From contig OZ024766.1 in assembly GCA_964016885.1 (NCBI GenBank), forward strand, positions 14,136,001 through 14,200,000: a stretch of 64,000 nucleotides of DNA, given 5' to 3'. This DNA comes from Eledone cirrhosa. Taxonomy: Eukaryota. Positions 1,543 to 37,460 of the stretch are shown here, one piece after another. A program made the translations under genes and the position numbers. Under the pieces are notes generated by a model, which saw nothing but the letters and a program-made list of their open reading frames with translations, did no database searches and had not been told where the DNA came from. Positions within the stretch are counted from its first letter, which is position 1, and each line of letters starts with the position of its first letter.

Positions 1543-1626
1543 CATATCTGAAGAGATGTCAAATAAAGTGTCGGGTCCCGTCATCTTGATTGTACCCTAA
1601 CCTGATATCGAAACAATTGTAATATG
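1543..1626 (+). ncRNA. Type I hammerhead ribozyme motif
   Basis: CATAT-CTGAAGA-GATGTCA..TGATATC-GAAA-CAATTG-TA-ATATG: stem I CATAT/ATATG, 7-bp stem II with a long loop, palindromic stem III, GUA cleavage triplet. Confidence 0.8.
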
Positions 1627-2047
1627 ACTTCGATTCTTTTCAATCTACACTCTGTAAATTACAGCCGTAACCCTGGAATACATCCTAATCGAGACGAACC
1701 CCGTAACAACATTGAGTCCTTCTAACGGCGCGTAACTGTAGTTACACACCTAACTATCACATACATACACAGACATATATTGACATATAAACACGTATGG
1801 GCAACCTGCAGCCCACGAAGCTTTCTGAATGGCTCGCCTAAGTCACCAAAGTGAAATCTTTCAGATCTTTTACCCCAACTTTTCAGTCGTAATTTATCTT
1901 TCAATCATATTTACGATCGAGGAAAACAACGTGTACGAATCCTGAAGAAACAAATCAAAACAACCTGAGTTACCACCCCTGTTTTTTTTAATGTGGGCAC
2001 GAATGTAAATTAGCGCTTGTGACCCGCCTGCTGATGAGCCATATCTC

Positions 2048-2278
2048 TGTGTCAATGGTGTGGTGGTGTGGAGGAGGTGACCGGAGGTGGAAGAGGAAGT
2101 GACGTGAGATGCGTACCCAGGAGCATTGGTGGGCCCTCTTTCGGCTGTAACCCGCGACGGACGGACGTGCGAATTGCAAACTGCAACTTGGCGAACGGAT
2201 TATACCCACGTGGATGAGCCTAGCTCGCTGAGTGAGCTTGCAGAATTGCGGTAAGTGCAGTAGCTTTCTCGTTACAAG
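2048..2278 (+). repeat. 5' LTR
   Basis: Aligns with 3807-4054 (GGAAGAGGAAGTGACG..GATGCGTACCCAGGAGCAT..GCAGTAGCTTTCTC.TTACAAG); the right end may extend to TTACA at 2303. Confidence 0.75.
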
Positions 2279-2403
2279 CTATTTCGGCATCTGAAGACTT
2301 ACAATTGAATAAAAACAAAATAGGAAGAATTATTTTTTTAAGACAAAGCTGCCGGAAAACAGAGAAGATTCTGTTGTTTGTTACTCATCGTAGGACTAAG
2401 GAG

Positions 2404-3150
2404 ATGACGACGAGATTACGGATGAGCGGAGAAGTAATTAGAGCTTTTACTGGTGAAGGTGACATTGTCGCCTGGATGCGAAAGGTTCGGCTGGCCGCTG
2501 AGCTGCAAAAGATAGACGATGTAGCGGGCCTCATCGCACTCCATCTTGAAGGTGACGCGCTAGCGTTGTACCTCGAGATGGACGACCTCAGCCAGAGGGA
2601 CGCGCAAAAAATTGAGCGGCGTATGATGGAAGCATTCGAGGAAGGACCGCTTACCCCGTTTGCTAAGCTGGCAAGGATTAGGTGAAACGGTGAGCGTGTG
2701 GATATTTTTGCAGCGGAGATAAGGCCACTGGCCATGCTGGCTGGGTTTCAGGTGGAATGCGAACATGCAGTGCGGTTGGCGTTCATAAACGGACTTCCGG
2801 ATGATATCGCGGTGATACTGCAGAAAATACCTGGCTACAAGGAAGTGGAGATGTGTGCACTGATAGAGCAAGCCCGCATCATAGCAGAGGATGCCAAGAA
2901 GAGTGATGCGGCACTAGCAGTAACGGAGGCGCGGGGCAGCCGACAGCGAAATGGCGAAAGAGAGACAAACACGGCGCGCAGTCGCCCGCGAACGTTTACA
3001 GCTGGTTGTTTTAGGTGCCAGGGCGCGCACATGGCGAGAGACTGTAGAGAGTCAATGCCGGACATAATTTGTTACCGGTGTAAGCGGCCAGGCCACATCG
3101 CTACCAGTTGCGACCAGGAAATGGTCCAAGGGGGGCTACTGCGCCCGTAG
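2404..3150 (+). pseudogene. gag: gag (disrupted)
   Basis: Reading frame interrupted by a stop at ~2685; CFRCQGAHMARDC and CYRCKRPGHIATSC CCHC zinc knuckles. Confidence 0.8.
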
Positions 3151-3169
3151 CTACTCCTCGCAAGTAGAG

Positions 3170-3340
3170 GCGCTGCCCGTGGTAAAAATCTTTGTGAGGG
3201 GGAAGCCATTACGAGCTCTAGTGGACACCGGCTGTACGACGACACTATTGACCACGGGGGTGGTGCAGAAGTGTTGAGGGAAGAGTAGCGTAAAGGCAGT
3301 CGACGGTAGGAAGATTGAATGTGGAGGTCGCAGGGAGGTA
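3170..3340 (+). pseudogene. Retroviral-type aspartic protease remnant
   Basis: VKIFVRGKPLRALVDTGCTTTL read from 3182 (GAC ACC GGC at 3224); an in-frame stop follows. Confidence 0.75.
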
Positions 3341-3343
3341 AAG

Positions 3344-3724
3344 ATGGCGGGGCGGGGGAACATATCACCAATGGAGGCAGTGTTTTGGTACATGTCCCCT
3401 CGGGTGGGACAGGCTGAGGAATCGGTGCCACACAGAGCAATATACAGATACGACTGGTGGCACCCGTGCACTGTACCACAACGGCCAGTGGAGAGAGAGA
3501 ACGCATTCGTACAGGTGGGCGAGGAAGTCTGGGTTAAGCCCCCAGACGCACGTTGCACATCTCAATGGGGAAAGGGAACGGTGATGGCCGTAAATTCTCA
3601 GAATAACGTGTCCGTGGACGGAGTGCCAAGTCATATCCGGGATGTCCGTATTGTCGTTGTGTCAACGGACTCCAAGGAAGAGGAAATCCAAAGCGCCGCC
3701 CCAACATTACGGGGATCGCAATGA
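3344..3724 (+). pseudogene. Gypsy integrase C-terminal remnant
   Basis: AVFWYMSPR...QVGEEVWVKPPDARCTSQWGKGTV..VNSQNNVSVDG resembles the end of the integrase core plus an SH3-like C-terminal domain. Confidence 0.65.
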
Positions 3725-3806
3725 GATCGCTGACCGCCTGGATGGACGGCAGATTATCACAAGAAGCAGTGTGAGGGGGAGATTGATCCTTGAGATCAGG
3801 GGGGCA

Positions 3807-4054
3807 TGTGGGGATGGTGTGGTGGTTTGGGGGTGACCGGAAGCTGGAGACGATCGACCGGAGGCGGAAGAGGAAGTGACGTAAGATGCGTACCCAGGAG
3901 CATCTGTGGGCCCTCTTTCGGCTGTGACCCGCGAGGGCGGACGTGCAAATTGCGAGCTGCAACTTGGCAAACGCATTATACCCACGTGGCTGAGCCTATC
4001 TAGCTGAGTGAGCTAGCAGAATTGCGGTAGGTGCAGTAGCTTTCTCATTACAAG
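3807..4054 (+). repeat. 3' LTR
   Basis: TGTGGGG start immediately after the polypurine tract; homologous to 2048-2278. Confidence 0.8.
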
Positions 4055-5009: not shown

Positions 5010-5492
5010 GAGGAAACAAAAAAGGGAGGAAGAAAAAGGGATCAAGTAGCGAAAGAAAGGGAGTGGGAGAAGAACAGACAATAGACCCCAGTCTGAGCAG
5101 TGCCCCGTGGTCAAAATGGAAAAGACATTGCCGCGGAGAATGACCAGAGACACCCACTGCACCAACCACCACACCTCACGAGGTTCTCTCCTTAACCGGA
5201 CCGCCGTCAGTTTCAATTAAAATATAAAATAATTTAAAAGAAGAGAATACAGATATATCTCTGTATTTTAATTGAAACAGATGGTGGCCTGTTTGAGGGG
5301 GGATTCTTGTGAGGTGGTGTGGCTGGTGTAGCAGGTGTCTCTGGCCATTCTCTGCAGTAATCTATTTTCCATTTTGACCACGGGGCACGGCTGAGCCACC
5401 ATTCAGACTAGGGACTAGAATCTGTTCTTCCCCCTCTCCATTTCTTTCGCTACTTGATCCCTTTCTTTTTTACTTTTCTTTTCATTCCCTCC
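5010..5492. repeat. Diverged long fold-back (arms ~5010-5225 and ~5264-5492)
   Basis: GGGATCAAGTAGCGAAAGAAA / TTTCTTTCGCTACTTGATCCC; GTGCCCCGTGGTCAAAATGGAAAA / TTTTCCATTTTGACCACGGGGCAC; GTTTCAATTAAAATA / TATTTTAATTGAAAC. Confidence 0.85.
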
Positions 5493-6318: not shown

Positions 6319-6365
6319 ATGTACCAAGATATTTCTATAGTAAAAATACCAAGTGAAAAAATATA

Positions 6366-8231: not shown

Positions 8232-8612
<381 letters not shown>

Positions 8613-8851
8613 AAAGTTATATTTAAATTGTTGGGTTACAACTAGTAAATATTTATAACTGATATAAAAGCACTCGACAAGTATTTGGAGTATATTTACA
8701 GTATTAAAAATGGAAACTATATTTATAAAACCATATTTATTTCATTATATATATTTCATTATATATATTAACTGCCAATTCAACTTTTCAAATACAAGTC
8801 GATGTTGTTACGGTATGTCAAATCTATTTATCTATAAAACTGTTTATATTG

Positions 8852-8918
8852 TATTTTGTCTGAGGAAGGCATAGCAATATTGTTAATATGATATCCCTGA
8901 AATATATATAATGAAATA
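8852..8918 (+). ncRNA. Type I hammerhead ribozyme motif
   Basis: TATTTTGT-CTGAGGA-AGG..CCT-GAAA-TATATA-TA-ATGAAATA; its 3' half and tail are inverted-duplicated at ~8697-8758. Confidence 0.7.
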
Positions 8919-8959
8919 AATATGGTTTTATAAATATAGTTTCCATTTATTTAATACTG

Positions 8960-9330: not shown

Positions 9331-10333
9331 TAGGAGGTGAGTTTTATTGTAGTACAATAAAGCAATGCAGATATCGGATAAGAAGACAAAAAAATTATTA
9401 TTATTTTTTTCTCCCCATCAACGAACTCATTATTAATACATATCAATTCAATATACAAACTTTAACTTCACATTATTTTTCTCAAATCCTTCTACACACA
9501 AACCATAACAATTTTTCTCTTCGCTAATTTTGAAATTGCCACAATACATACATTTCTTCTTTTGACGTTAGAATATTCACCCACAATTATTATTTTTTTC
9601 TCTCTATCTTCATACATAATTTCCCTTCGTTAATTTTCAAATTCCTTTAATTTATACATTATCTTCCAACGGTTCCCAACCTCTCTATATTAAAACAATA
9701 TATCTTTTTCTCAGTTATAAAAACTATCTCTTTCTCTCTATCACCCATCTCTCCCTCTCCACCTTCACTCTCATCTCCTCCCCCCTTTTTTTCATCCTTT
9801 CCACCCCACCCCCACCCCCTCCCTAAATAAAATATTTTTTCCTCGCACATATCCTCCCTTCGTTAATTTTCAAAATTTTTAATTTATACAGTATCTTCCA
9901 ACGGTTTTCAACCCCTCTATGTAAAAAATATATCTCCTCTCAGTTATAAAAACTATCTCTTTCTCTCTATCACCCATCTCTCCCTCTCATCTCCTTCCCT
10001 TTTCATCCTCCCCCCCCCCCTCTCTAAATAAAATATTTTTCCCAATATCACACATCAATCTAAAACCACTTTTCATATGTTGATTTAAAACTGCACTATC
10101 AACAAGTGTTTTTTAGCCTTCATATCATGTTCTCCTGTTTTATCTGATGAAAACACAAATATTATTGCTTGATGATGTTTGTTTTTGAAATGCGCATAAT
10201 AAAATATATGGAACTCCTTTAACCATCTTTTGATCTTATATTATGCATACTCCAGTCCCACAAACTGTAGAGTGCTTCTTATCCGATATCTGCATTGCTT
10301 TATTGTACTACAATAAAACTCACCTCCTACATA
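9328..10333 (+). mobile_element. Non-coding Penelope-like remnant with a ~58-bp inverted terminal duplication
   Basis: ATGTAGGAGGTGAGTTTTATTGTAGTACAATAAAGCAATGCAGATATCGGATAAGAAG (9328) is the reverse complement of ~10275-10332; contains a hammerhead and an internal ~230-bp tandem duplication (9622/9856); embedded in (TA)n. Confidence 0.7.
10137..10205 (+). ncRNA. Type I hammerhead ribozyme motif
   Basis: GTTTTAT-CTGATGA-[~16-bp hairpin]-GAAA-TGCGCA-TA-ATAAAAT. Confidence 0.85.
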
Positions 10334-10972: not shown

Positions 10973-11372
<400 letters not shown>

Positions 11373-11485
11373 GACTCCAGTTCCCCAGTGAATTAACAAC
11401 CCAACAAGGAACTGGGCATATCAGAGTATTGACAATATCATACACCTAAACAACATATGTACTTGTCTATACCATACTAATTCAA

Positions 11486-11540
11486 ACTGCCTGAAGAGGT
11501 CACAGCCAAATATGGCTGTCACTGAAATATATATAGCAGT
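11486..11540 (+). ncRNA. Type I hammerhead ribozyme motif
   Basis: ACTGC-CTGAAGA-GGT.ACAGCCA AATA TGGCTGT.ACT-GAAA-TATATA-TA-GCAGT. Confidence 0.88.
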
Positions 11541-11734
11541 AATAAACGAAGCTAAATTTTAATCATTTGATTTTTATTTAACTTTATTTTACACTACTCC
11601 GGAATAACCAAACCAACCTGCGCACTTCGTCGAGTGCTCCAGCCTGCATACTGAGGTGTTGGTATACAACCAACATAAACTCTAAATCTATATACACATA
11701 TATATATATATATATATACACATATATGTATTAA

Positions 11735-12005
11735 CTTGTTCAGGTTGTCGAGAACAATACATAGGCCAGACCAAAAACCGCCTCCGCCAACGCATGACTG
11801 TCCATAGATCCCCAAATTAAAATACGGGAATACAGGAAAATACCACTGAGTGAACACATTGATACCTGTGCCGCCCAAAATCATCCCAACTTCAGAATCT
11901 TTCCCCTCTACAAATTTAAAGATAATGCCACCCACACTCAGCGCATCAGCAAGAATCTTACTTCATTAACAAATACGGACCCCCGTCTAAACACTTCTCC
12001 CTAAG
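11735..12005 (+). pseudogene. Penelope-like GIY-YIG endonuclease C-terminal remnant
   Basis: CSGCREQYIGQTKNRLRQRMTVHRS then, after a frameshift, IPLSEHIDTCA..FRIFPLYK..LN. Confidence 0.7.
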
Positions 12006-20235: not shown

Positions 20236-20273
20236 AATTCCTTTCAACTAAACTGTATCCATTCAAATCTTTC

Positions 20274-21941
<1,668 letters not shown>

Positions 21942-22522: not shown

Positions 22523-22560
22523 ATAGTAATAAACGAAAGATTTATACTTTATACCATCTC

Positions 22561-22638
22561 TATTTTATTATATATATTTCGAAGATGTAAAGTTTTATGT
22601 ATAACATAAACCAGAAGATGTCCTCCTCAGACAAAATA
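22561..22638 (-). ncRNA. Type I hammerhead ribozyme motif (family of 8852)
   Basis: Minus strand: TATTTTGT-CTGAGGA-GGA..TTC-GAAA-TATATA-TA-ATAAAATA. Confidence 0.75.
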
Positions 22639-22848
22639 CATAGGAGATAATTTTTCCTGATATCCTGGTAGACAAATGAGCTGGACAGTTTGGTAACAAC
22701 CGAGTATATGATTAGAAAAAACTCAACACAGGGGGTTACGTGACTGGGAGAATAATTACAGTTTTTTAAACATTTATTAAATTATTTAAAATATAGCGTA
22801 ATTAGCATTCTAAGAGAAATATAGAATCAAAATAGTACAAAAGAAAAT

Positions 22849-23466: not shown

Positions 23467-23584
23467 CCCTATATGATATGGTTCTTTCTCTCTCTTTGTA
23501 TATATACATATATCTTTTCCATTTGATGTCTGCTTAAATTGTGTAAATATGTGTATGTCCATTAACACTGACTTATATATGCTA

Positions 23585-23644
<60 letters not shown>

Positions 23645-23702
23645 AAGGCTCTGATACCATCAACACTATAAACACAGAGCTGGCATGTCTAAGAACTGAC
23701 TA

Positions 23703-23758
23703 ACTGCCTGATGAGGTCATAGCCATTCAATGGCTATCATCGAAATATATATAGCAGT
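23703..23758 (+). ncRNA. Type I hammerhead ribozyme motif (family of 11486)
   Basis: ACTGC-CTGATGA-GGT.ATAGCCAT TCA ATGGCTAT.ATC-GAAA-TATATA-TA-GCAGT. Confidence 0.88.
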
Positions 23759-23819
23759 AAATAAAGGATTATGAGTTCATGCAATTGACTTATGTTTTAT
23801 CACTATATATATATATATA

Positions 23820-25460
23820 TTTATTTATTAAAATAACATATTAAAGTTTAAGCAAAGAATCGCTGCTTTCACCCTTAACGGGATCTTCTGAAACTAACAA
23901 AGTCAATCTGTGAAGGCAGAAGTGAATATTTCAAAAAACGTTGCAACAGAAGGAAGATAGGAAGACGATACTTTGGTTCGTGGAAATGTTCCTTGGTAAA
24001 GAACGGGAAAAAACGAATATAATACGTCCTTAATAGGAGCGGTGAAAAACAATTACACGCAAAGACAAAACCACGTTTATGGTATAAAAGAAGTTGTAGA
24101 CTAATGTTCTCTTAGGTGGTGCATAGAGACGTTCTCTGGCAATGAACGGAAAAAACGAAGATAATACGTCATATGTGGAGCGTGGAGAACAATTGCACGC
24201 AAAGACAAAACCACGTAAATGGTATAGCAGAAGTCGTAGACTAAAATTCTAACTAGGAGACCGAATGAATCTCGGCTTCAGAGTTAAGAATAAAGTAAAT
24301 AAAATACAATACAGAGGCAATTGAAATTAAATAAATACATACACGCATCCATATACGTACATACACAAGCATACGCGAAAACACTCGCCATAGGTATAAA
24401 AAACCACGCACATATAAATATGTGTGTGTGTGTGTGCGTGTATACAAATAATTAAATAAATATGTATATAACATGCGCACACACATACCTACATGTAAAT
24501 ACACAAATGTTCGGAGACGTACGTCAACCAAAACACGAAGTACACATATACACACACCCTACATATGTACGAACCCACATACTCACATAGACGCAAAACT
24601 CACGTATACACATAACCAAAAGCATATATACCAGAATATATAAAATATACGCCATAACATATACAATCAAATATACGTACGAGAAAGTATACGTACCTTC
24701 ACAAAACATACAGGTAATATATACTTACCTATGCAAATAAGTAATGGTATAAACATAACATATACTTAGCTACCACATCAAGATGTAAAATATCCGCGTA
24801 TAGATCGTACTATCCATTAGGGTATAATGTGGGGCTGTAATACAGGAAAGTTTTGTGCAATTTATGTTTACAAGCCGAAATTGCCTCAGATTTTTTGTTT
24901 AAGATGTGGTCTGTGGCGTAGAGTATTTCCAGGGCCTCAGCGGCGCAAAGGTCACATGATCTTTTATTTCTGTTATATGATCTAGCCCTAGCTAGGATCT
25001 CCCAGTGTAACTTATATTGGGTGTGGTTGTCTTTTAGACTCCAGATATAAGCTGAAAGTGACGTCATATTCCTTCTTAGAGGGTAACGAAAATAATGGGT
25101 ATGCATGTAAAGACGCTGCTTGAATCTATTGGCGGTTAACCCTATGTAGGCCCTACGGGACGTGGGTGTTACAACCTTACATTTGTAGACAATGTTACTA
25201 GAGAGGCATTTTCCGGATAGGGGGCAATCAACCCGATTCCTACAATTACAGTTAGTACTAACTACTGGGTTGCACGTGTTCCTACGGCTAGGTAGTTTAG
25301 CTAAATTAGAAGCTGTGATGTTATGTGCAATGTTAGGAGTCGTAGAGTAAGAAATTTTAATAGTATTTCTATTAAAAATTTTACTATATTTATGTGTAGG
25401 GGGAAAATGCTTCGTAATAAGGGAGAGAAAGATCTTAGCTAATGGTGTGGCCACCTCCAT
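23820..25460 (-). mobile_element. 5'-truncated Penelope-like element
   Basis: GIY-YIG ORF 24810-25460 and ~1 kb of 3' UTR with a ~143-bp internal duplication (24001/24144); terminus repeated at 33848-33899. Confidence 0.8.
24810..25460 (-). pseudogene. Penelope-like GIY-YIG endonuclease (open 216-aa fragment)
   Basis: KHFPPTHKYSKIFNRNTIKISYST..CNCRNRVDCPLSGKC..IVYKCKV..YIGLTANRFKQR..H..CDLCAAE..ILN. Confidence 0.88.
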
Positions 25461-25461
25461 A

Positions 25462-26481
25462 TTACATGGTGGGTTATACCATATAATGTTCTTAGCACTC
25501 TCCTGTTCATCATAGTCCTGCAGGCAATAACGGAGGAGTTTAAGACCGGATGCCCATGGGAACTCCTGTATGCTGATGACCTCACACTTATAGCTGAATC
25601 CATGGTGGAACTAGAGAAGAAATTCCAAACATGGAAGCAGGGACTAGAAAGTAAGGGTCTCAAAGTCAACCTGACAAAGACTAAGGTCCTTGTAAGTAGA
25701 CAAGAAAACAGAACCCAAATACCCTCAGGGAAATAGCCTTGCTCAGTATGTAGGAACTCCATTCTCTGCCCCAAATGCAAACAATGGGTACACAAGAGAT
25801 GAAGCGGGATCTCAGGAAGCTTAACTAAGAATGTAGGCTTCACATGCAGCAGCTGTGCTGGGACAGCAAGCAGCAAACAGCCACAGGAAACAAGTACCAC
25901 CAATCTCTGGGAGGGCTCTGTAGAAACAGTAGACAGCTTCTGCTACCTAGATGACCAAATTAGCAGCGGAGGTGGGTGTTCAGAAAGTACAATAACTAGG
26001 GTAAGAACGGGATGGAAGAAGTTCAGGGAGCTACTGCCACTACTAGCTGCAAAAGGCTTCTCCCTCAAAATGAAAGGCAGACTGTATGATGCGTGTATAT
26101 GAACAGCAATGTTACATGGTAGTGAGACCTGGGCGCTGTCTGTAGAAGACTTGGGTAGATTAGAAAGAAACGAAGCCTGCATGCTCCGATGGATGTGTAA
26201 TAGTAATATACGTGAACGGCAAAGCATTAACGAATTGAGAGAGACTGAGCATAAGAGGAATCAAATGATGTGTGCAGGAGAGGAGGTTGTGTTGGTATGG
26301 ACATGTGATATGAAGGATGATAGCTACATAAAAAGGTGCAGAGCACTAGAAGTCGATGGAAACCGCGGAGTGGGGAGACCCAAGAAGACCTGGGATGAGG
26401 TGATGAAAGCTGACCTTTCCCAATTACACCTCTCAAGAGCGATGACACACGACCGTGACCTCTGGTGTTACACAGTAATAG
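25462..26481 (+). mobile_element. RTE-clade LINE fragment A (RT C-terminus, PHD-like finger, thumb)
   Basis: LSTLLFIIVL..CPWELLYADDL..MLHGSETW..GRPKKTW, with stops and frameshifts. Confidence 0.88.
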
Positions 26482-28241
26482 CGCAACTAATCAGAGAGAG
26501 AATTGATCTAGATGAAATGCCGTTCGGGTTTGTATCAGTTAAAAGTACCACAGACGCTCTTTTCATTGTACGACAACTACAGGAGAAGTACCTAGCTAAA
26601 AGTAAACCCCTATACTTAGCTTTTGTCGACTTAGAGAAAGCCTTCAACAGAGTCCCCCGTTCCATTATCTGGTGGGCTCTTAGAAAACTAGGTGTTGATG
26701 AATGGCTTGTGAGGGCTATACAAGCCATGTATAAAGAAACAGTCAGCAAGGTTAGAATTAACAACGAATATAGTGAAGAGTTTAGCATAAAAGTTGGTGT
26801 TCATCAGGGCTGCGTTCTTAGCCCCCTACTAGTTATTATTGCCCTTCAGGTTATAACAGTGGAGTTCAAGACCGGCTGCCCATGGGAACTCCTATACGCA
26901 GATGATCTAACGCTCATAGCTGAATCAATGGCCGAACTAGAGAAGAAGTTCCAAACATGGAAGCATGGCCTAGAATCAAAAGGCCTTAAAATTAACCTGT
27001 CTAAGACTAAAGTTCTAGTTTGTAGGAAGGAAAATAGGGCACCGGTCCCATCCGGGAAATGGCCATGCTCAGTGTGTAGGAAAGGAGTAGGTAGAAACTC
27101 CATTTTATGTCCCAAATGCAAAGTATGGGTGCATAAAAGATGTAGTGGGATCACAGGTAAGCTAACTAAGAACATAGATTTTATATGTGGCCAGTGCTCT
27201 GGTGCAATAAGTAGCAGCAAGTGCCCACAGAATACTAGCTCATTCCATTGCACATATGGTTCTATAGAAATAGTGGACAGCTTCCTTTACCTGGGTGACA
27301 AAATCAGCAGTGGGGGAGGGTGCTCTGAAAGTACAGTAGCTAGAGTCAGAACTGGATAGAAAAAGTTCAGAGAGCTTATACCACTATTAGCCGCTAAAGG
27401 GTTCTCTCTAAAAATGAAAGGCAGGCTGTATGATGCCTGCATACGAACAGCAATGTTACATGGCAGTGAGACCTGGGCATTGTGTGCAGAGGATATACGC
27501 AGACTGGAGAGAAACGAAGCTTGCATGCTCCGCTGGATGTGTAATAGTAATATACGTGAACGGCAAAGCATAAACGTACTAAGGGAAAAATTAGAAATAA
27601 GAGGGATCAGATGTTGTTTACTCGAGAGAAGACTACGTTGGTATGGTCACGTGATGCGCATGAAAGATGACAGCTGTATAAAAAAGTGCAGGGCAATAAA
27701 GATAGACGGTAGCCACGGAGTAGGCAGACCCAGAAAAACCTGGGACGACTTGATAAATTCCGACCTTACACACTTACACCTCTCCAAGACAATGTCACTG
27801 GACTGAGATCTTTGGCGCTACTCAGTAATAGAGAAGACCCGCCTTATCTAAGTACAAAGTGAAACCTACCACAGTCAGTAGGCACCTCTAACAAAATACA
27901 CCCCCGCCCCACTACCCCCACCCATCCTCACCACCCCTTTCAATGTAAAGTTATGTTGGTACCACAACATCCAGTCCGAAACAAATGAGGTCGTGTAGGT
28001 ATCACGACAAAAAAACACACAATCCACGCTGTAATGTTGCTGTGTAGGCAACACGGTAAAAACCTCCCAGTTCCACACTGTAAACGTGGTTGGTGTTAGG
28101 AAGGGCATCCAGCTGTAGAAAACCCGCCAGACAGTCCTATGCGAGCAAGACAACCACTCTTGCCTCAAGTGGGAAAACTCCCGTCCAAACCCATGCAAGC
28201 GTGGAATATGGACGTTAAACGATGATGATGATGATGATGAT
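26475..28241 (+). mobile_element. RTE-clade LINE fragment B with 3' UTR and (GAT)n tail
   Basis: FGF..STTDALF..LQEK..AFVDLEKAF..GVHQGCVLSPLL..LLYADDL..RLRWYGHVMRM..GRPRKTW; ends GGACGTTAAACGATGATGAT. Confidence 0.92.
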
Positions 28242-28269: not shown

Positions 28270-29270
28270 AGAAAAAATTTACGAAATGGAAATGCGGGTA
28301 TATAGAATTTATTAGGTAACAATTGTTTCTATAGAGTATGAGTTACCTATACCTCGCTATTTGAATAATACACAAATATTATCAAAAACCGAAAGTACAC
28401 TGTAAGCCAACACACCATGTCATCAGACCTTTGTATTAGAATGATATGAAAATATTTTATACACTAGATAAAAGATAAAGAAGGAGGTAGGAAGAGAAGG
28501 GGAAGAGGGAAGTGAGTAAGGTGGAGGGAGTCCTAGGGTTTAAGACAGTCAGACTAGTAGAGATTGTGAAGAGAGAATGTTTTGGCAGCAGTTAGCTTAA
28601 TGAGGCGTGTTAAGGTTGGCTGGGAAGTAGATTCTTCTAGTGGTGTTGTTCGGACAAAATTTAGTTAGAGGGGTCAAAGTGGTACAATGTCACAGACAAG
28701 TTATTAGGGCTATTATAGTAGCAGGTTATTTCTAAAGGGGTCCAGAAAAACAGTGTTTACTACTATTATTATAGAAAGCAATATCTAGTGTATAAACATA
28801 TAAGACAGAAATTTGCAAACGTTGGTGTAAAAAGGTAACATTATATGCATTTAAAAAAAGAAAAAGTCGTTTTCAAACGATAGTTACAGTATAGAGAACG
28901 TTCAATTTTGCTGTTCAAAAGTTTGTTTACCGACGTTAAAATGCAGTATATCTCTAAATTGCATAACTTGCAGAATCGATGATTTTGCTGATATGCAGGC
29001 GCAGCTGCAATAATTTGCCAATCAAGGGAGAACGCTTGATTGTTCCTCCGAAGCTGCCAGGCTTTATCGGCGAGGGTTGTTACGGAGCGCATTTTCTCGT
29101 GCCTGATCGAAGATCGATGTTGGTATAGGCGAGCCTTGAAAGAAGTTGCGGTACATCCGACGTAATACCATTTGTTGGTCCCGGAATTTATTGTACACCG
29201 GTAGACAATATTGCGTGCTAGGCACTGGTTATTCAGTGGGCACGTACCTGGTTTGGTGCAGTTACAACTA
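28270..29270 (-). mobile_element. Penelope-like 3' remnant (GIY-YIG 28841-29270, UTR, hammerhead)
   Basis: [54 protein letters not shown]; related to the element at 19308. Confidence 0.85.
28314..28430 (-). ncRNA. Type I hammerhead motif with a ~90-nt stem II region
   Basis: Minus strand: AGGT-CTGATGA-cATGG...CTATa-GAAA-CAATTG-TT-ACCT. Confidence 0.75.
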
Positions 29271-29466
29271 TTTATATATGTATATATATATACATGTATG
29301 TCTATATATATGTATATATATATACATGTATGTCTATATATATATATGTATATATATATACATGTATGTATATATATATATATATGTATATATATATACA
29401 TGTATGTATATAAATATATATGTATATATATATATATACATGTATGTATATATATATATGTATATA

Positions 29467-30486
29467 CAGGGTGTGGAAGATATTTGGTCACAATTTTCAA
29501 CTGCTAATTTCATGCAAATGCTTTTTACTTCCGTTGTCACTCTTGTCCTCATAAAAACAGTGACTATATTTCCATTATTTATTTTCAGAATAATTGATTA
29601 TGAATAATTTTGAACCTCCAAATTTGTGGAAGAGACACGGAGTTCTTCTCGGAGTCCGCGCCGGGAGGACAAATAAGGACCAGAAGATCAACTCCCAGAA
29701 CAAAAGGTGGCTCGCTGTCTCATCCAAAGACGTGCCCAGAGTCATGCAGATAAAGTTACCAGCAACAACACTGGTCTTAGGTGTCGTCAGCAGTCAAGGT
29801 GACGTAATGTCACCTCACTGTTTCCCTGAGGGTCTCAAGCTGAACACCGATGGCTACATCCGCAATCTGAGAGAGGTAGTAAAGCCCTGGATCGACCAGG
29901 TAGCTGCAGGTAGGCCGTACGTGTGGCAGCAAGACTCAGCGCCCTGCCATACCAGCCGAAAGATCCAAGCCTGGCTGTCAGAGAACTTCGTCGACCACAC
30001 CTCCCCTGACATCTGGCCTCCCAGCTCGCCTGACTGCAATCCTCTCGACTTCTTTGTGTGGGGCGCAGTGGAACGAGACACCAACAGATCTTGCTGCATT
30101 ACGAAAGACGATCTGAAGGCCAGGGTCACAAGTGCCTTTAGGGGCCTAAGTTGGGGTACAGTGACGAAGGCCTGTAGCCAGTTCCTAGGCCGCCTTGAGG
30201 CTACCATCAAAGCCAATGGCGGGTCTATCGAGTGAGATCGAAAGAACAAGTCATGAAAACAAACTGACCCAAATTTGATAAATCATCATCATCATCATCA
30301 TCATCACCGTTTTACGTCCGTTCTTCCATGCTAGCATGAGTTAGACAGGTTGTCCTGTTGTGGGCAGTGTCTGGTCGGCTGACCATGCCTTGCTCATACA
30401 GGAACTGATATATCTTAAAAAATAAAACTACTGTGTTATTTTTCTCCTAGACAGTAATCTTGCCAACAAATATCGTCCACACCCTG
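29467..30486 (+). mobile_element. maT (DD37D) Tc1/mariner transposon, internally deleted, copy 1
   Basis: TIRs CAGGGTGTGGA.GATATTTG / CAAATATCGTCCACACCCTG, TA-flanked; WQQDSAPCH..SPDCNPLD with 37 aa between the Ds; RTE-tail fragment inserted at ~30283-30410. Confidence 0.92.
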
Positions 30487-30557: not shown

Positions 30558-32085
30558 ATCATCTTCATCATCATTTTACATCCACTTTTCCCTGCTTGCA
30601 AGGGTGGGACGGGTCCTATTCAGCACAGCATCTCTCGACTTGTCACGGTCCTTTGTCATCTCCTCTATGAGCTTCAGCGTTCTGAGGTCTTCTCTCACCA
30701 CCTCTGCTCATGTTTTACATGGTCTACCTCTACTGCGTCTTTCTTCTACTGGGATTTCTTGGCACTTCTTTACCCAGCGGTCATCCCCCATGCGCATCAC
30801 ATGTCCATACCATCTCAGTCTTCTCTCCTGCACACCACAACCTATCCCTCTTATACCCAGTTTCTTTCTCAACTCATCTATGCTTGGTCGTTCACACACA
30901 TTGACATTGCACATCCAACGGACCATACTTGCTTCTCTCCAGCCTTCACATATCCTTTGCAGTTGCTGCCCATGTCTTACTACCAAGCAGCATCTCACAC
31001 AGGCATCATATAACCGTCCTTTCGTATGCAGGGAGAAACCCTTCTTTGTCAACAAAGGAAGCAGCTCCCTAAACTTCTTCCAACCCATCCTTACTCTAGA
31101 TACTATGGCCTCGGACCCCCCCCCTCCCATGCTAATCTGATAACCTAGGTACCAGAAGCTATCAACCACTTCTATAGAACCCACCTGCATTGGAAAAATG
31201 TGTCTATCACTGCGACTCCTACTGTCAAATGTCCCTGTACATCTACTGCATATGTAGTTTTCCCTACCTGTTAGTTTGCCTACTATCCCACTACATCTCT
31301 TGTGTACCTAAGATCTGCATTGCGTACATTTTATGGAATTTATGCCAGTTCCTTTCCTACATATCGAACATGGCCATTTCCCTGATGGAATCAGAGTTTT
31401 GTCCTCTTTTCTACTCATCAACACTTTTGTCTTAGCTATGTTCACTCTCAGGCCTCTTGATTCCAACTGCTGTTTCCAGAGCCAGAATTTATACTCTAGC
31501 ACCTCTACTGATTCTGCTTTAAGAACCAGATCATCAGCACAGAGAAGTTCCCATGGGCATCCAGTCTTAAACTCCTCTGTTATGGCTTGGAGGACTATAA
31601 TGAACAAGAGTGGGCTGAGGGCCGAACCCTGATGTACACCTACTTGTATCTGGAATTCCTCACTAAATTCCATTCCTACCCTCACTTTACTGACAGCACC
31701 CCTGTACATAGCTTGCACTGTCCTCACAAGCCATTCCTCTACACCTAGTTTCCTTAGGGACCACCAGATGACAGATTGGGGTACCCTATCAAAGGCCTTC
31801 TCTAGGTCAACAAAGACTAAGTATAGTGACTTATTCTTCTCTAAGAACCTCTCTTGCAATTGTCTCACCAAGAAGAGGGCATCTTTTGTACTTTTCCCAG
31901 GCACAAAACCAAACTGCATCTCATCTAAATTGACCCTTTCTCTAATCAGCTAATATTCTCTCTGCCACTATCATAACCTGATCCATCAGCTTTATGCCCC
32001 TATAATTGCTCCTCTCCAGAGCATCCCCTTTATATATGTAGCAATTTATGAGAATACTGCTGTACCAGTCTTTGGGTATGACACC
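30558..32085 (-). mobile_element. RTE-clade LINE fragment
   Basis: YKGDALERSNYRGIKL; QFGF..FVDLEKAFDRV..HQGSALSPLLF..ADDL..KWPCSIC; RLRWYGHVMRM; (GAT)n tail. Confidence 0.92.
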
Positions 32086-32195: not shown

Positions 32196-33088
32196 CAGGA
32201 TGTGAACGATATTTGGTCGCAATTTTCAACTGCTAATTTTATGCAAATTTTTTTTACTTCCGTTGTCACTCTTGTCCTCATAAAAACAGTGACTATATTT
32301 CCATTATTTATTTTCAGAATAATTGATTATGAATAATTTTGAAACTCCAAATTTGAGGAAGAGACACAGAGTTCTTCTTGGAATCAGCGCCAGGAGGACA
32401 AATAAGACCAGAAGATAAACTCTCAGAACAACAGGTGGCTCGCTGTCTCATCCAAAGACGTGCCCAGAGTCATGCAGACAGAGTTTCCAGCGACAACATT
32501 GGTCTCAGGTGTCGTCAGCAGTCAAGGTGACGTCACGCCACCTCACTGTTTCCCTGAGGGTCTCAAGCTGAACACCGATGGCTACATCTGCGTTCTGAGC
32601 GAGGTAGTAAAGCCCTGGATCGACCAGGTAGCTGCAGGTAGGCCGTACGTGTGGCAGCAAGAGTCAGCGCCCTGCCATACCAGCCGAAAGTTCCAAGCCT
32701 GGCTGTCAGAGAACTTCGTCGATCTCACCTCCCCTGACATCTGGCCTCCCAGCTCGCCTGACTGCAACCCCTTCGACTTCTTTGTGTGGGGCGCAGTGGA
32801 ACGAGACACCAACAGATCCAGCTGCAATACGAAAGACGATCTGAAGACCAGGATCACAAGTCCCTTTAGGGGCCTAAGTCGGGGGGTCAGTGACGAAGAC
32901 CTGTGGCCGGTTCTGAGGCCGCCTTCAGGCCGTCATCAAAGCCAATGGCGGGTTTGTCGAGTGAGATTGAAAGAACAAGTCATGAAGACAAACTGACCCA
33001 AGTTTTATAAATAAATCTTAAAAAATAAAACTACTGTGTTACTTTCTCCTAGACAGTTATCTTGCAAACAAATATCGTCCACACCCTG
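32196..33088 (+). mobile_element. maT (DD37D) transposon, internally deleted, copy 2
   Basis: Same TIRs and the same deletion junction as copy 1; D->E change at QQE. Confidence 0.92.
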
Positions 33089-33897
33089 TATGTATATAGT
33101 CAGCTTGACAGTGACACAGAGGAGGCTGAGGTTAGCTGGACATGCTTAACGACATCCAGAGTTGACACTGCACTCAGTGCTCCTGTAGGAGCCCCTGCAT
33201 TGACACACTGGACGAGGAAGACCAAGGTTAACATATATTGATGCTCTCAGGACAGGCACTGGTGTCTTGGAGATGCAGGACATGGGAGCGATAATGAGGG
33301 ACAGAGACCACTGGAGAGAACTCATCCATGGATCTCGTGAATTTACAAAATATCCACATTTATGTGTAAATAAAAACAATTTTATAACTTTAATGTTTGT
33401 TGGATGGTACTTTCATGACAGTTGAAATTATGACTTTTTAAAAATTAATTCACATTTGAAAATACAACTTTCTTCACCCATTCCTGAGAGGGTTGTAGGG
33501 GGTAGAGTCCTCACACACCCCTTCTAGGTCCTATGTTTGTAAAATGTCCTCTATATACTACACACACACAAAACCACATCACTCTGCACACACACACCAC
33601 ATCCCACACAACAGACATACACCATACCACACCAAACCACATACAAACCAGGTAGTTATACCAACCCAGTATCTTGGTTTTAGTGATTTTTTTGTAACAA
33701 ATCTCAACATCCCAGTCCTTAGCAACTGGAGTGGAACTCATCAGATTGGATATTAAATGATGAGCTGTGACATCATTGGTGTCAACCTGTTTCAGCCATT
33801 CCTTTGGACAACATTATAGTGTATGTATGTAGTATATATATATATATATTTATTAAAATAACAGATTAAAGTTTAAGCAAAGAATCGCTGCTTTCAC

Positions 33898-34040
33898 CTT
33901 CTAATCTATTGTAAAACTGTATTCATTGATCAATGAACCCCTTGTTAAACTTTTGGTTATATATATATATATATATAGCCAAAAGTTTAACAAGGGGTTC
34001 ATTGATTAATCAATGAATAAAGTTTTACAATAGATTAGAA
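33898..34040. repeat. ~60-bp inverted repeat centred on (TA)n
   Basis: CTTCTAATCTATTGTAAAAC..CCCCTTGTTAAACTTTTGG / CCAAAAGTTTAACAAGGGG..GTTTTACAATAGATTAGAAG. Confidence 0.85.
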
Positions 34041-34120
34041 GCACTCAACAGATAGGTTTTCTGGAGTTATTAATATTACTTCAAAATATTAATAAATATA
34101 GACATACATGTGATCAAATA

Positions 34121-34186
34121 TATTTTATTATACATATTTCAGAGGTACTGAGCTGTTTCATCAGTACGCCCTCATCAGATAAAATA
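34121..34186 (-). ncRNA. Type I hammerhead ribozyme motif
   Basis: TATTTTAT-CTGATGA-GG..GTACTGA..TCAGTAC..CT-GAAA-TATGTA-TA-ATAAAATA. Confidence 0.85.
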
Positions 34187-34250
34187 AATTGATGTCTGCC
34201 AAAACTGGAATTGAACCATCAGCACAGTTGAGGTATGTCAGACATCAATT

Positions 34251-34316
34251 TATTTTATCTGATGAGGACGTACTGATGAAATAGCTCAGTACCTCTGAAA
34301 TATGTATAATAAAATA
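34251..34316 (+). ncRNA. Type I hammerhead ribozyme motif (inverted twin)
   Basis: Same motif on + within the 128-bp inverted repeat 34071-34198 / 34239-34366. Confidence 0.85.
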
Positions 34317-34385
34317 TATTTGATCACATGTATGTTTATATTTATTAATATTTTGAAGTAATATTATATATATATATATATATAT

Positions 34386-35920
34386 ATCTCAGTGTCTCCT
34401 CTCTGACCTCAGTGTAAGCGGTACAGAGTTCTTCCCTCATCACCTCCACAGTCTCCATCCTCTCCCCCGTAGGACCAGCATAGAATTGGCCCTTAGCAGC
34501 TTTCAGGTGTTCTCTGGCTGCACACACTTTTGGGTTTGCAGAGCTGACGTGCTTCCCTTTGTTCTTTTTCCTCGGCACCAGGGTTTTACTTGCTTCCGCC
34601 ACTGCATTGGTGAAGTTCCCGTACCTCCTCGTCACACTCTCCTCGGTCCATCCAATCTCTCTCTCCTCTGACTCTCCACACAGAGCACTGAACCTGTTCC
34701 TCACTTCCACTGTGAACCTCTCCTGTAGCTTATCATCTTCCTTGAAAGCTCCCCAGTCATAGATTGTTCTCCGGGGCTGAGCCTTGCTCTTTCTTAAGTT
34801 CACCTGGACCTCACTCATAACAAGCCGGTGGTCACTACCCAGTGTACTGAAATAGCTGTATGGTTCTGTGTTCAGAACACTATTCCGCCACTTTTTCCTC
34901 ACCAGAATGAAATCAATCTGGGACTTGAACAGGTGCATATCTGAGATGTAGGTCCACATCTTCCCCGGATTCTTCCTAAACCTTAGGTTGGTTGCCATCA
35001 AGTTCGCCTCCAGCAGGGTGTCTCTCAGTAGTCTTCCATTTCGGTTGGTGTTGTTATGGAAGTACCAGCAAGGATCTTCACTGCCCTCCTTACTCAGATG
35101 TGCATTGAAGTCCCCCAAAACAAGCAGGATGTTGTGAGCTTGTGTGGTGTTGACAGCTCTACACACCTCCTCATGGAACTCTTCTGCACTCACATCACTG
35201 TCTCCCTCGGTTGGACTATAGGCTGAGATGACTGTCAGTCTTGGGTTTCCATTGAAGGTCACCCTCAACACTCGCGGGGAGATAGGCATTATTTCCCTCA
35301 CCAACAGATTGGTTTTTGCACTGAACACAAAACCCACTCCTCCTACTGCAGCATTTGTTGTGTTCTTCACTGCCGATGTCGTGATGAGCTGGCTCATCTT
35401 CCCAATCATCACACTCCTCACGGGCTCATCGTGTAGGATCCTGTGTTGTTGGATTGTAAGTATCTGCATACCACTCTCTTCGAACAGATGTCCCAACTCC
35501 TCTCTCTTCTCCAGCGTCCGAATAGTCCTCACATTCAAAGTGCCCATTTTATTGGCTCTTCTGCAGGACAAAACTGCATTCTTTATATTTGTCTCAGAGA
35601 TAGCTGATCCATCATCCACTGGCCCTCCCTGTGGCTCTAAGCCAGAAGAGTCATAACGACCAGACTGCTCCTTGACAGTGTAATTAGGGGCTCTAACCCT
35701 AGTGCTGTTAAATCGACTTTCCATGGTTCTTTTCAGTGGCTGACAATACCTTACCGGCGCCACTCAAATAAGGTAGTTATTTCCCCCATAAACAGGGCCC
35801 TAACAGGTACTACTACTCCGGCCCAGAGCAGACCTGGGAGTTATGAGAACTAAACGGTAACTCCACATTCCCAACAGCTTCGAACTGGATGTAGTTTAAT
35901 GTCTTAGCCAGGACAGTATG
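34386..35920 (-). mobile_element. LINE 5' portion: UTR + APE endonuclease ORF (RTE-like), 3' truncated at (TA)n
   Basis: GTLNVRT..GGVGF..ISAYSPT..LGDFNAH..NRNG..SQIDFIL..SDHRLV are APE motifs (the catalytic E reads Q in IQQH). Confidence 0.9.
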
Positions 35921-36061
35921 TATGTATGTATGTATTTATCAATGTATGTGTGTATGTGGACATGGCCTAGGGTAAGGACGCAAGACTTGGGATCATAATG
36001 AAATATTTAAATATTATTTCTATTTGTAATATATAGATAAATATATATCTAAGCTCTGTAT

Positions 36062-36813
36062 TTATTTATTATATATATAATGTATAATTTATTTATTATA
36101 TATATAATGTATAATTTATTTATTATATATATAATGTATAATTTATTTATTATATATATAATGTATAATTTATTTATTATATATATAATGTATAATTTAT
36201 TTATTATATATATAATGTATAATTTATTTATTATATATATAATGTATAATTTATTTATTATATATATAATGTATAATTTATTTATTATATATATAATGTA
36301 TAATTTATTTATTATATATATAATGTATAATTTATTTATTATATATATAATGTATAATTTATTTATTATATATATAATGTATAATTTATTTATTATATAT
36401 ATAATGTATAATTTATTTATTATATATATAATGTATAATTTATTTATTATATATATAATGTATAATTTATTTATTATATATATAATGTATAATTTATTTA
36501 TTATATATATAATGTATAATTTATTTATTATATATATAATGTATAATTTATTTATTATATATATAATGTATAATTTATTTATTATATATATAATGTATAA
36601 TTTATTTATTATATATATAATGTATAATTTATTTATTATATATATAATGTATAATTTATTTATTATATATATAATGTATAATTTATTTATTATATATATA
36701 ATGTATAATTTATTTATTATATATATAATGTATAATTTATTTATTATATATATAATGTATAATTTATTTATTATATATATAATGTATAATTTATTTATTA
36801 TATATATAATGTA
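36062..36813. repeat. 27-bp minisatellite, ~28 apparently identical copies
   Basis: Unit TAATTTATTTATTATATATATAATGTA. Confidence 0.95.
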
Positions 36814-37004
36814 AAAGGAGGTGGATTGGCAGTATCGGTAGAGGGTCGGATGCCATGCTTTGCAGAATAGAGTTACGTCCCTTTACGGTCTGAGTTCAAA
36901 TCCCTCCAAGGTTAACTTTGCCTTTCATCCTTACGGGGTCGATAAAATAAAAGTACCAGTAACGTACTGGGATAATTACTGGCCTTGTGCCAAAAGTAGA
37001 AACA
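36814..37004 (+). mobile_element. tRNA-derived SINE with a 17-bp TSD
   Basis: A box TGGCAGTATCGG, B box GTTCAAATCC, body AACTTTGCCTTTCATCCTTACGGGGTCGATAAAATAAAAGTACCAGT; TSD ATTATATATATAATGTA at 36797-36813 and 37005-37021. Confidence 0.88.
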
Positions 37005-37341
37005 ATTATATATATAATGTATACACAGTTCAAGAGTAACCAATCTTAAAGAGAGAGATGGAGATAGGAGAGGAGATATGAGAGGAGAGATTGGTGAATT
37101 AGTTAGAAGCCAAAGCGTAAAGGCATGTGCTCAATGTGCAATATGCAGTAGAAAGCAGCTAGGTGGCTGGGTTCATGCAGAAGTTAGGTGCGCAGAGCTG
37201 GAAATATTCATTAGTTAAGCAAAACAAGACCACAAATTTCACAAGGAAGACATTATTAAAAGATTGTCAACATATTTTAGTTTGATGTAAGGAATGTAGA
37301 GAATAATAATAATAATAATAATAATAATATATTCCTTTGAA

Positions 37342-37460
37342 GTTCCGATGAGCCGCTCTGTCTTTTAAATATGTTAATTATTTTCAACTGAACAGATCAA
37401 TTATCATATATAGTCATCTGATCCAGGAATATTATATGGAGTAGCGAAACAATTGTAAAC
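37342..37460 (+). ncRNA. Degenerate hammerhead motif (U4C)
   Basis: GTT-CCGATGA-GCCGCTCTGT...ATGGAGTAGC-GAAA-CAATTG-TA-AAC; flanked by an inverted repeat (37204-37330 vs 37478-37548 + 38464-38528). Confidence 0.6.

Follow-up and report, generated by a model that had tools for sequence, protein, structure and literature searches.

Hammerhead motifs in a 64-kb window of the Eledone cirrhosa genome as probable ends of Hydra-type Penelope-like elements

What accounts for twelve type I hammerhead ribozyme motifs of several families in 36 kb of Eledone cirrhosa DNA, most of them with no open reading frame (ORF) nearby? A sequence-only reading of this stretch had taken them for a diverse population of Penelope-like elements (PLEs), possibly including undescribed non-autonomous ribozyme retroposons that target (TA)n. 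We scanned the whole stretch of DNA under analysis (64 kb, here called the window) with a descriptor designed post hoc, the motifs being already known (C[CT]GANGA, stem II of up to 160 nt, GAAA-6 nt-TH, and stem I of at least 3 bp), and recovered exactly 12 motifs, all at the positions and on the strands that the earlier reading had given. Shuffled DNA (positions 1 to 38,600, dinucleotide-shuffled 200 times within 500-nt blocks) yielded a mean of 0.075 motifs and a maximum of 1, and none at all when the stem III palindrome was demanded as well, so the excess over shuffled sequence is confirmed.

The CUGANGA / GAAA / UH core is exact in 11 of the 12, the exception being a U4C change at 37345. 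Stem I has 3 to 8 bp and stem II has 6 to 16 bp with one mismatch allowed, and we agree with the earlier reading that both stems pair in families whose stem sequences are unrelated, which argues for selection on the fold. The six bases of stem III are self-complementary in every motif, with five different 6-mers among them; for these, folding predicts self-duplexes (-2.2 to -10.5 kcal/mol) but not a monomer hairpin. The minimum free energy fold of the monomer is often unlike the hammerhead fold, and single-strand folding z-scores are mixed (+1.4 to -3.0). In an Rfam scan of the window with 200 matches, hammerhead models were absent from the best 150, these being solely miRNA-like matches on (TA)n, and they gave no match at E values up to 10 in two small regions containing three of the motifs. 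By their core and stems, the twelve are type I hammerheads for which self-cleavage is predicted. They sort into 10 families (A, B, C1, C2, D, E, F, G, H, and I) and lie among related features as follows.

1543-1626, plus strand: hammerhead, family D (core C at 1548); old and diverged, in a stub at ~1504-1790, no parent ORF found
8605-8772, minus strand: inverted arm, family A, with the long 3' end; stops within the ribozyme
8852-8918, plus strand: hammerhead, family A (core C at 8860), in a stub at 8768-8958 that begins at the family's modal 5' end; (TA)n flanks
9332-9385, minus strand: inverted tail, family B
10136-10206, plus strand: hammerhead, family B (core C at 10144), terminating ~0.9 kb of 3' UTR (9398-10332)
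11486-11540, plus strand: hammerhead, family C1 (core C at 11491), in a stub at 11369-11694 from the modal 5' end to the long 3' end
18233-18349, minus strand: hammerhead, family H (core C at 18344); sense copy, ~0.97 kb past the ORF
19311-20063, minus strand: Hydra-type ORF, family H, 5'-truncated, with linker CxCX5C and GIY-YIG
20120-20236, plus strand: hammerhead, family H (core C at 20125), in an inverted arm (20080-20273) 99.5% identical to 18196-18389
22561-22638, minus strand: hammerhead, family E, old (core C at 22630), in a piece at ~22523-22801
23703-23758, plus strand: hammerhead, family C2 (core C at 23708), in a stub at ~23636-23810
23845-23895, minus strand: thirteenth hammerhead fold, family J, with U4A, a 3-bp stem II, and a 5-bp stem III with a 7-nt loop
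24813-25500, minus strand: Hydra-type ORF, family J, 5'-truncated, 0.92 kb before its ribozyme
28314-28430, minus strand: hammerhead, family I (core C at 28426); cleavage position is U
28844-29275, minus strand: GIY-YIG end of the family I ORF
33833-33898, minus strand: short 3'-terminal piece, family J, 97% identical to 23808-23873 and without the core
34121-34186, minus strand: hammerhead, family F (core C at 34178), in the long arm (33958-34194) of a head-to-head pair
34251-34316, plus strand: hammerhead, family F (core C at 34259), in the short arm (to 34366) of the same pair
37342-37460, plus strand: hammerhead, family G (core C at 37345, U4C), within 37328-37556 and preceded by an inverted tail

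A GIY-YIG piece at ~11722-11990 was rejected as the parent of the motif at 11491; it belongs to a different clade, and its insertion point is where the C1 stub ends.

Copies of the families were located across the genome by pattern searches. We found ORFs for a reverse transcriptase (RT) and a GIY-YIG endonuclease flanked or followed by the same ribozyme ends, in units of ~3.0 to 4.5 kb from ribozyme to ribozyme. Family B is linked through stop-to-stop frames of 738 to 821 amino acids at four loci (L123, L125, L127, and L128), the 821-residue frame of L123 being a single ORF with RT followed by a C-terminal GIY-YIG domain, and the same layout, assigned by motifs, recurs in A, C1, F, G, J, and E. 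ORF-bearing copies were found at loci elsewhere in the genome for A, G, C1, F, and J; family C2 is linked by two loci sharing a GIY-YIG end 1.2 to 1.3 kb upstream (in L246, we did not count the ORF that lies 1.2 kb downstream of the C2 copy), and an ORF lies within 1.5 kb at 8 of 12 loci of family H and 10 of 12 of family I. The link for family E is one decayed ORF (L293), in part common to L242. The weak points of the linkage are D, which has no ORF link, and E, which depends on that single decayed copy.

Thus, 11 of the 12 motifs, in nine families, are pseudo-LTR ends of autonomous PLEs of the known Hydra type. The earlier reading had confined clear membership of GIY-YIG elements to the pair at 18234 and 20121 and to 28314, a restriction that does not hold, since clustering into families and searching for PLE ORFs, as it had proposed, gives ORF-bearing copies for nine of the ten families genome-wide and leaves only D unlinked. 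Its remark that most motifs lack a nearby ORF is correct locally and incorrect for the families, whose copies elsewhere carry ORFs; the local absence is explained by 3' UTRs of 0.4 to 2 kb between ORF and ribozyme, together with truncation.

The ORFs contain the Hydra motifs RxRW, DKT, CxCX5C, CxxC..E, and CxH and lack CCHH; RW is followed by T or R rather than K, and in family I CxY replaces CxH. They also resemble the Hydra-1_Obim protein when compared by eye with the printed sequence, and we assigned the elements to the Hydra clade on these motifs and this comparison. The hammerhead at the 3' end, the insertion into (TA)n, and the tandem and inverted structures with a tail are all present, and (TA)5 occurs within 400 nt downstream of 78 to 100% of copies in nine families, compared with 34% of random positions. 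Motifs, ORF links, and (TA)5 enrichment therefore agree with the diverse, (TA)n-targeting PLE population that had been proposed. The unit length does not follow the Hydra trait "generally <3 kb," which is descriptive rather than diagnostic, and the endonuclease is C-terminal, unlike that of Naiad PLEs, which is N-terminal and comes with no canonical hammerhead. Pfam and PDB searches with the ORFs matched no family and no solved structure, and a protein search with the family J ORF returned 912 relatives with a best identity of 57%. PMC8557442 already describes Hydra elements that carry hammerheads and target (TA)n, an octopus member among them.

The hammerhead of family J at 23845-23895 was absent from the earlier list, and its U4A core falls outside the strict one. 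It differs from the others in having a monomer-type stem III (5 bp and a 7-nt loop), and J is the largest family counted, with 22,738 matches genome-wide, of which 105 have U4. Similarly, U4C is the usual state of family G. Contigs of three sequencing runs compared with J gave no variant at core position 4 among the matches listed, which is a weak test. No RNA data set was listed as containing family J, a result that says nothing about its expression. U4 variants may already be listed by Lünse et al. 2017, in work on PLE hammerhead variants. A genome sample contained ~56 hammerhead motifs per Mb, giving an estimate of ~170,000 genome-wide.

We also looked at where the copies begin and end. Copies of any one family end at one of two fixed 3' positions, 85 to 115 nt apart, and many ORF-less stubs share one 5' end, a family-specific initiator-like A after TC or TT. 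The copies starting at this modal A, among those that reach it, number 17 of 37 in B, 6 of 24 in A, 7 of 23 in C1, 5 of 26 in F, 15 of 75 in J, and 7 of 14 in C2. Counted from core C3, this A lies at -69 in B, -90 in A, -122 in C1, -64 in F, -72 in C2, and -5 in J. An extra G precedes the A in 21 of 57 stubs overall (10 of 17 in B, 9 of 15 in J, and none of 14 in C1 and C2 together); several cases are explicable by the inverted arm or by local duplicates, and six are clean (L294, L040, L144, L257, L263, and L334). Other 5' ends form a continuum reaching up into the 3' UTR. Inverted pairs join a long and a short arm in 30 of 31 classifiable cases (A, B, C1, and F), with looser pairs in J (8 long and short, 3 short and short, and 2 unclassified). 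No 5' ends fell at the cleavage site in A, B, C1, F, or H and 2 of 71 did in J, counts that are biased because the loci were mostly chosen for containing a whole ribozyme (family G was left out, its reference having run into another repeat).

The fixed A start, the two fixed ends, and the long-and-short pairs fit internal priming on uncleaved, capped element RNA. We consider it probable that 11 of the 12 motifs and the thirteenth are pseudo-LTR hammerheads of ten Hydra-type PLE families, whose remains in (TA)n are 5'-truncated ends, inverted arms, and short ORF-less stubs, the last being likely copies of element RNA made from its uncut 5' end. Transcription would start at the modal A inside the upstream pseudo-LTR, the start site and cap both being putative. 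The element protein would nick (TA)n and start reverse transcription from one of two sites within the RNA, both just 3' of the ribozyme. When the site used belonged to the 3' copy, full-length or truncated elements would be made, whereas priming at the 5' copy would run off at the cap after ~75 to 330 nt and leave an ORF-less ribozyme stub; if both DNA strands were primed, one site each, long and short head-to-head pairs would result. Ribozyme cleavage is predicted to be slow, dimer or protein dependent, and dispensable for insertion. An anole Penelope-like protein studied in vitro cuts both strands and starts priming from two internal positions close to the beginning of the ORF; its template there is uncleaved RNA, and cleavage is not needed (PMC11167929).

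On the circle model of PMC4209133, the ribozymes would instead be a working processing step, with copies in a tandem transcript cleaving as a dimer and the unit ligated into a circle that serves as the template. The self-complementary stem III of all twelve motifs, with its predicted self-duplexes, and the pairing of stems I and II favor this model, but a circle cannot yield stubs whose fixed start lies upstream of the cleavage point, an extra G being present in some of them. Furthermore, the U4A of the largest family and the U4C of G are expected to reduce activity (PMC3088659 and PMC9901934), and the anole element does without cleavage. We therefore regard the circle as rather unlikely. It can still apply to long copies, and copies of a re-ligated circle would look uncut too.

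The earlier suggestion of non-autonomous retroposons, which we take to mean that some short units, above all family D, propagate from an internal promoter of their own and are moved in trans by Hydra proteins, seems doubtful to us. It draws on D copies whose common sequence extends up to ~200 nt upstream of the core, on no ORF being assignable to D in 30 + 30 short and 14 long loci, on the retention of the putative start site and both priming sites in stubs, and on a report of rotifer pseudo-LTRs as cis signals for mobilization in trans (PMC3846280). (An ORF in L420 upstream of a D copy was rejected as D's parent; it closes with its own, different hammerhead ~0.9 kb before D.) Against it, nine of ten families have ORF-bearing copies, their 5' ends run continuously into the 3' UTR, and D likewise has two 3' ends and head-to-head pairs; D is also the most diverged family (~70 to 85% between copies), so its long copies may have decayed. 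The window contains no tandem arrays holding any of the motifs, and the genome matches listed are dispersed, inverted, or kilobases apart, with a few direct pairs at 200 to 500 bp. The proposal mostly fails because the motifs are not tandem retrozymes and the stubs are pieces of autonomous families, and it is possible for D only. Least likely, and very improbable in our view, is that the solo ends date from after insertion, when pseudo-LTRs recombined or the DNA between them was deleted, and that self-priming on an antisense template produced the inverted pairs. Solo pseudo-LTRs and head-to-head palindromes have been published and interpreted in that way (PMC3846280), but deletion predicts neither the common 5' end at an initiator-like A, nor the extra G, nor the long and short arms of 30 of 31 pairs.

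Returning to internal priming on uncut RNA, we put forward a wider reading only tentatively, as somewhat short of probable: a Hydra-clade explosion with >100,000 hammerheads, whose top family has a fixed U4A in a monomer-type fold starting at the first transcribed base, U4A being either a working natural variant or a weakened ribozyme that escapes a self-cleavage brake. Since cleavage would sever the ORF from the priming sites and cap, a weaker ribozyme could free a family from this brake. The start-site-to-tail stubs, in their thousands, would record how capped, uncut RNA was primed internally, each double-strand cut receiving one long event and one short.

That PLEs carry hammerheads and that most genomic copies are solo ends is already known. 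What this genome offers is material on the role of the hammerhead in PLEs: at least 10 young families with near-intact ORFs, and natural U4, C4, and A4 cores with dimer- and monomer-type folds side by side, so that cleavage rate can be compared with copy number. The stub anatomy is a testable in vivo extension of internal priming, known in vitro from one lizard element, and suggests an origin of solo pseudo-LTRs other than deletion. The largest family would escape ribozyme searches that use a strict core.

Among known systems, the closest is the Hydra clade of C-terminal EN+ PLEs, including Hydra-1_Obim of Octopus bimaculoides, which in the available text of PMC8557442 shares RT and C-terminal GIY-YIG, RW and DKT, CxCX5C, the lack of CCHH, (TA)n targeting, and a type I hammerhead near the 3' end; family J also has the U.U at the foot of stem II that is frequent in File S2 of that paper. 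Compared with Hydra as published there, the units are longer (3.0 to 4.5 kb with 3' UTRs up to 2 kb, versus generally <3 kb), the families number at least 10 with hundreds to >22,000 copies each, stem II reaches 94 nt, tails are 85 to 115 rather than 30 to 40 nt, and U4A and U4C are family wide where all the cores in the File S2 rows covered here have U4. The minimal type I hammerheads of metazoan PLE pseudo-LTRs, as described in PMC4209133, are alike in being mostly solo motifs attributed to truncated elements, in opposite-strand pairs 100 to 700 bp apart, in long stem II and palindromic stem III, and in having many families per genome; the numbers differ (~170,000 estimated here versus ~4,000 in coelacanth and ~9,000 in Xenopus), and the core variant there is U3-A8 rather than U4A. 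Non-LTR retrozymes (PMC7229834 and bioRxiv 10.64898/2026.07.22.740005, as far as their available texts go) likewise have type I hammerheads, no ORF at the locus, and a PLE link, but they are tandem 150- to 450-bp units with canonical ribozymes, whereas the motifs here are dispersed ends of families with coding copies in nine of ten cases. Finally, Poseidon PAc of Anolis (PMC11167929) resembles the elements described here in its two internal priming sites defining the tail, the cutting of both strands at AT-rich DNA, the uncleaved RNA template, and the protein-assisted ribozyme; it belongs to a different clade, and among its genomic products the available text of that paper mentions neither start-site-to-tail stubs nor a cap-like G.

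The descriptor recovered from the 64 kb exactly the 12 type I hammerhead motifs claimed by the sequence-only reading and none besides, having been tuned on those same 12. Stem I is 3-8 bp long, the stem II region spans 26-94 nt, and the stem III 6-mer is self-complementary in 12/12 motifs, with five distinct sequences. That such motifs might be no more frequent than in shuffled DNA, a possibility raised in that reading, is contradicted by the mean of 0.075 motifs in 200 local dinucleotide shuffles of positions 1-38,600, as opposed to 12 in the real sequence; the mean fell to 0 when the palindrome was required. The stem III 8-mers are predicted to form dimer duplexes (-2.2 to -10.5 kcal/mol) and no monomer hairpin, matching the dimer-type design described for Penelope-like element (PLE) hammerheads (PMC4209133). 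We concluded that the hammerhead feature of the window is real and is explained mostly by a known clade.

We counted each family in the Eledone cirrhosa assembly (G000, 3.0 Gb) by exact pattern; the reversed-pattern control gave 0 every time.

Matches of hammerhead families in the assembly (window position of the core C in brackets)
A (8860): 3,983
B (10144): 18,995
C1 + C2 (11491, 23708), jointly: 9,634
D (1548): 249; 358 with an alternative pattern
E (22630): 3; 116 with a looser pattern, which includes a sister type
F (34178, 34259): 4,401
G (37345): 1,330
H (18344, 20125): 2,583
I (28426): 296

In a genome sample of 39 fixed 10-kb stretches, unweighted for contig size, the strict descriptor found 22 motifs and, in each of five shuffles of that sample, 0. 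The resulting density of 56 per Mb (95% interval, 35-85) extrapolates to an estimated 170,000 or so motifs genome-wide (106,000-256,000). Because hammerheads number in the tens of thousands in Schistosoma, whose genome is much smaller, this density need not be a record. Reported minimal motifs number 4,000 in coelacanth and 9,000 in Xenopus (PMC4209133), and reported retrozyme copies up to 120,000 in axolotl (PMC7229834). The first 38.6 kb of the window is ~5-fold richer in motifs than the sample and has three times its (TA)n content (17% versus 5.5%). The random sample also held further families: a monomer-type family whose stem III is long and whose U4 is canonical (L415), a CCGA family in addition to the first, 4-nt-palindrome types and types with stem II regions of 103-115 nt (loci L415, L389, L396, L390, L393, L414, L378 and L400).

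The sequence-only reading had seen only the 18234/20121 pair and the motif at 28314 as clearly belonging to GIY-YIG elements, which proved too narrow, as A, B, C1, C2, E, F and G are also linked to ORFs. Family B ends flank 738- to 821-aa frames with RT and C-terminal GIY-YIG motifs (L123, L125, L127, L128), and the same layout was found for A (L194-L197), G (L206, L207), C1 (L198, L201, L202) and F (L203). In C2, a GIY-YIG end lies 1.2-1.3 kb upstream at each of two loci (92% identity between them), and in E a decayed sense ORF in L293, 66-72% identical to A and F, reaches within 1.36 kb of the ribozyme, its end recurring at another E copy. For H and I, pieces of the ORF lie in the window, and an ORF occurs within 1.5 kb of the ribozyme at 8/12 and 10/12 loci, respectively. 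The stop codon lies about 0.38 kb from the ribozyme in G, 0.42 kb in I, 1.0 kb in B and H, 1.2-1.4 kb in C1, C2, A and E and 2.0 kb in F; truncated copies therefore usually lack coding sequence. Searches by tblastn and HMM of 14 long loci and 60 short ones, local duplicates among the latter, yielded no ORF that could be assigned to D; the sole candidate was rejected, as it belonged to a different family. Two further elements were also seen. Directly 3' of the C1 stub lies a GIY-YIG end, frameshifted and from a separate Penelope-like clade of CCHH type (about 11722-11990, +), with a 72% relative after the C1 copy in L198. The other is a further Hydra-type family, likewise decayed, which carries a long-stem-II hammerhead of its own (L420:1572-4771, -; also in L421, L210 and L066).

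The family proteins are 38-53% identical among themselves and gave no match in Pfam and PDB searches. They carry features given for the Hydra clade (PMC8557442): RxRW, DKT, a CxCX5C linker, CxxC and CxH around conserved E and N, and no CCHH. The supplement of that paper gives 21 Repbase families and the 2,507-bp, hammerhead-bearing (TA)n element Hydra-1_Obim of Octopus bimaculoides, whose protein, compared by eye alone, resembles ours. The proposed (TA)n targeting was borne out, for in nine families 78-100% of copies have (TA)5 no more than 400 nt downstream, as do 62% of D and 50% of E copies, versus 34% of random positions.

Many copies are stubs, short ORF-less element ends holding the ribozyme. 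The 5' ends of copies are scattered along the UTR, yet each family has one peak, at -69 (B), -90 (A), -122 (C1), -64 (F), -72 (C2) or -5 (J) from core C3, and the window insertions of A, C1 and C2 start at their respective modal sites. The peak base is A in all six families, preceded by TC in five and by TT in J, a setting that looks initiator-like; both an initiator-like TCACT within a pseudo-LTR and an internal promoter have been published (PMC3846280, PMC2377424). Among copies reaching the modal A, 57/199 start there, and in 21 of these 57 the preceding base is G in place of the element's C or T, as with the untemplated G of LINE-1 and SVA, which is interpreted as copied from the cap (PMC4859970). 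No extra G occurs in C1 and C2; six cases are clean, and several others are duplicates or coincide with an inverted junction. The modal A may be a transcription start site, and the G a copied cap. In a copy set biased to whole ribozymes, 5' ends lay no more than 3 nt from the cleavage site in B 0/64, A 0/57, C1 0/39, F 0/45, H 0/16 and J 2/71.

The 3' ends of each family fall at two fixed positions, +107/+190 (B), +106/+193 (A), about +100/+200 (C1), +105/+209 (F) and about +155/+270 (H) from core C3. The span between them is the PLE tail, 85-115 nt here, whereas it is 30-40 nt in published Hydra-clade elements (PMC8557442). In families A, B, C1 and F, inverted pairs combine a long and a short arm in 30/31 classifiable cases (a further 7 have one end unclassified); among 13 J pairs, 8 are long+short and 3 short+short.

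[quoted passage not shown] On the transcript of a tandem copy such sites would occur twice: use of the 3' pair would yield long copies, and use of the 5' pair, running to the cap, a start-site-to-tail stub with a ribozyme and no ORF. One priming event per DNA strand, at differing sites, would give the long and short inverted pairs. The ribozyme may then be a brake or switch, because cleavage at its 3' copy would separate the ORF from the priming sites and cleavage at its 5' copy would take off the cap.

A thirteenth fold escaped both the sequence-only reading and the strict descriptor:

23845-23895: hammerhead fold, family J, 0.92 kb past the GIY-YIG piece at 24813-25500 (-)

Stem I is 5 bp long, the core reads CAGAAGA (U4A), U.U closes the 3-bp stem II, and stem III, of 5 bp, has a 7-nt loop and no palindrome. 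J is the largest family counted (22,738 matches with core position 4 open), and one 3.26-kb unit (L284) has a 645-aa open stretch between two J motifs. Since position 4 is A in 100/100 of the matches listed and U in just 105 matches, A4 is the state of the family; G has C4 in about 92/100 of the matches listed (counted by eye). U4C is known, with reduced activity, in a viroid hammerhead (PMC3088659), and when one ribozyme was scanned by mutation, activity was low after single changes in CUGA (PMC9901934). The J fold lies 3.3 kcal/mol above the predicted minimum, and the ribozyme may be weak or dead. "U4A" has 0 occurrences in PMC3088659, and a literature search including the term was empty; wider literature searches, made mostly at the level of record listings, turned up neither a family with U4A nor PLE stubs defined by a start site.

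The window also holds other elements.

1470-1800 and 21798-24146: parts found again (98-100% identity) at two more places on the contig, a local segmental duplication
2079-4054: remains of an LTR retroelement, with broken gag-like (zinc knuckle) and protease-like frames lying between two 200-bp repeats that are 91% alike
5035-5464: imperfect 430-bp inverted repeat, MITE-like
22848-23465: 170-bp x3.6 array, hammerhead absent
25488-27831, 30700-31950, 34345-35763, 29469-30283, 32198-33012: what we take to be RTE-type LINE RT/endonuclease-like fragments and two mariner-like transposase pieces, the latter 92% alike
36060-64000: satellites of 27 bp x28, 21 bp x528 (38614-49691), 45 bp x11 and 80 bp x57 (50720-55214)
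55572 to the window end: (TGG)n runs

The literature already describes solo minimal hammerheads derived from truncated PLEs, pairs on opposite strands, Hydra elements sited in (TA)n and a member from octopus. The Octopus vulgaris repeat annotation gives 31 Penelope-like families as recently active, and neither "hammerhead" nor "Hydra" occurs in it (PMC13282606). We regard U4A as a probably new core variant, the abundance as unusual and the stub structure as an added mechanistic clue. Non-LTR retrozymes are tandem units without an ORF-bearing family, and in this the elements described here differ from them.
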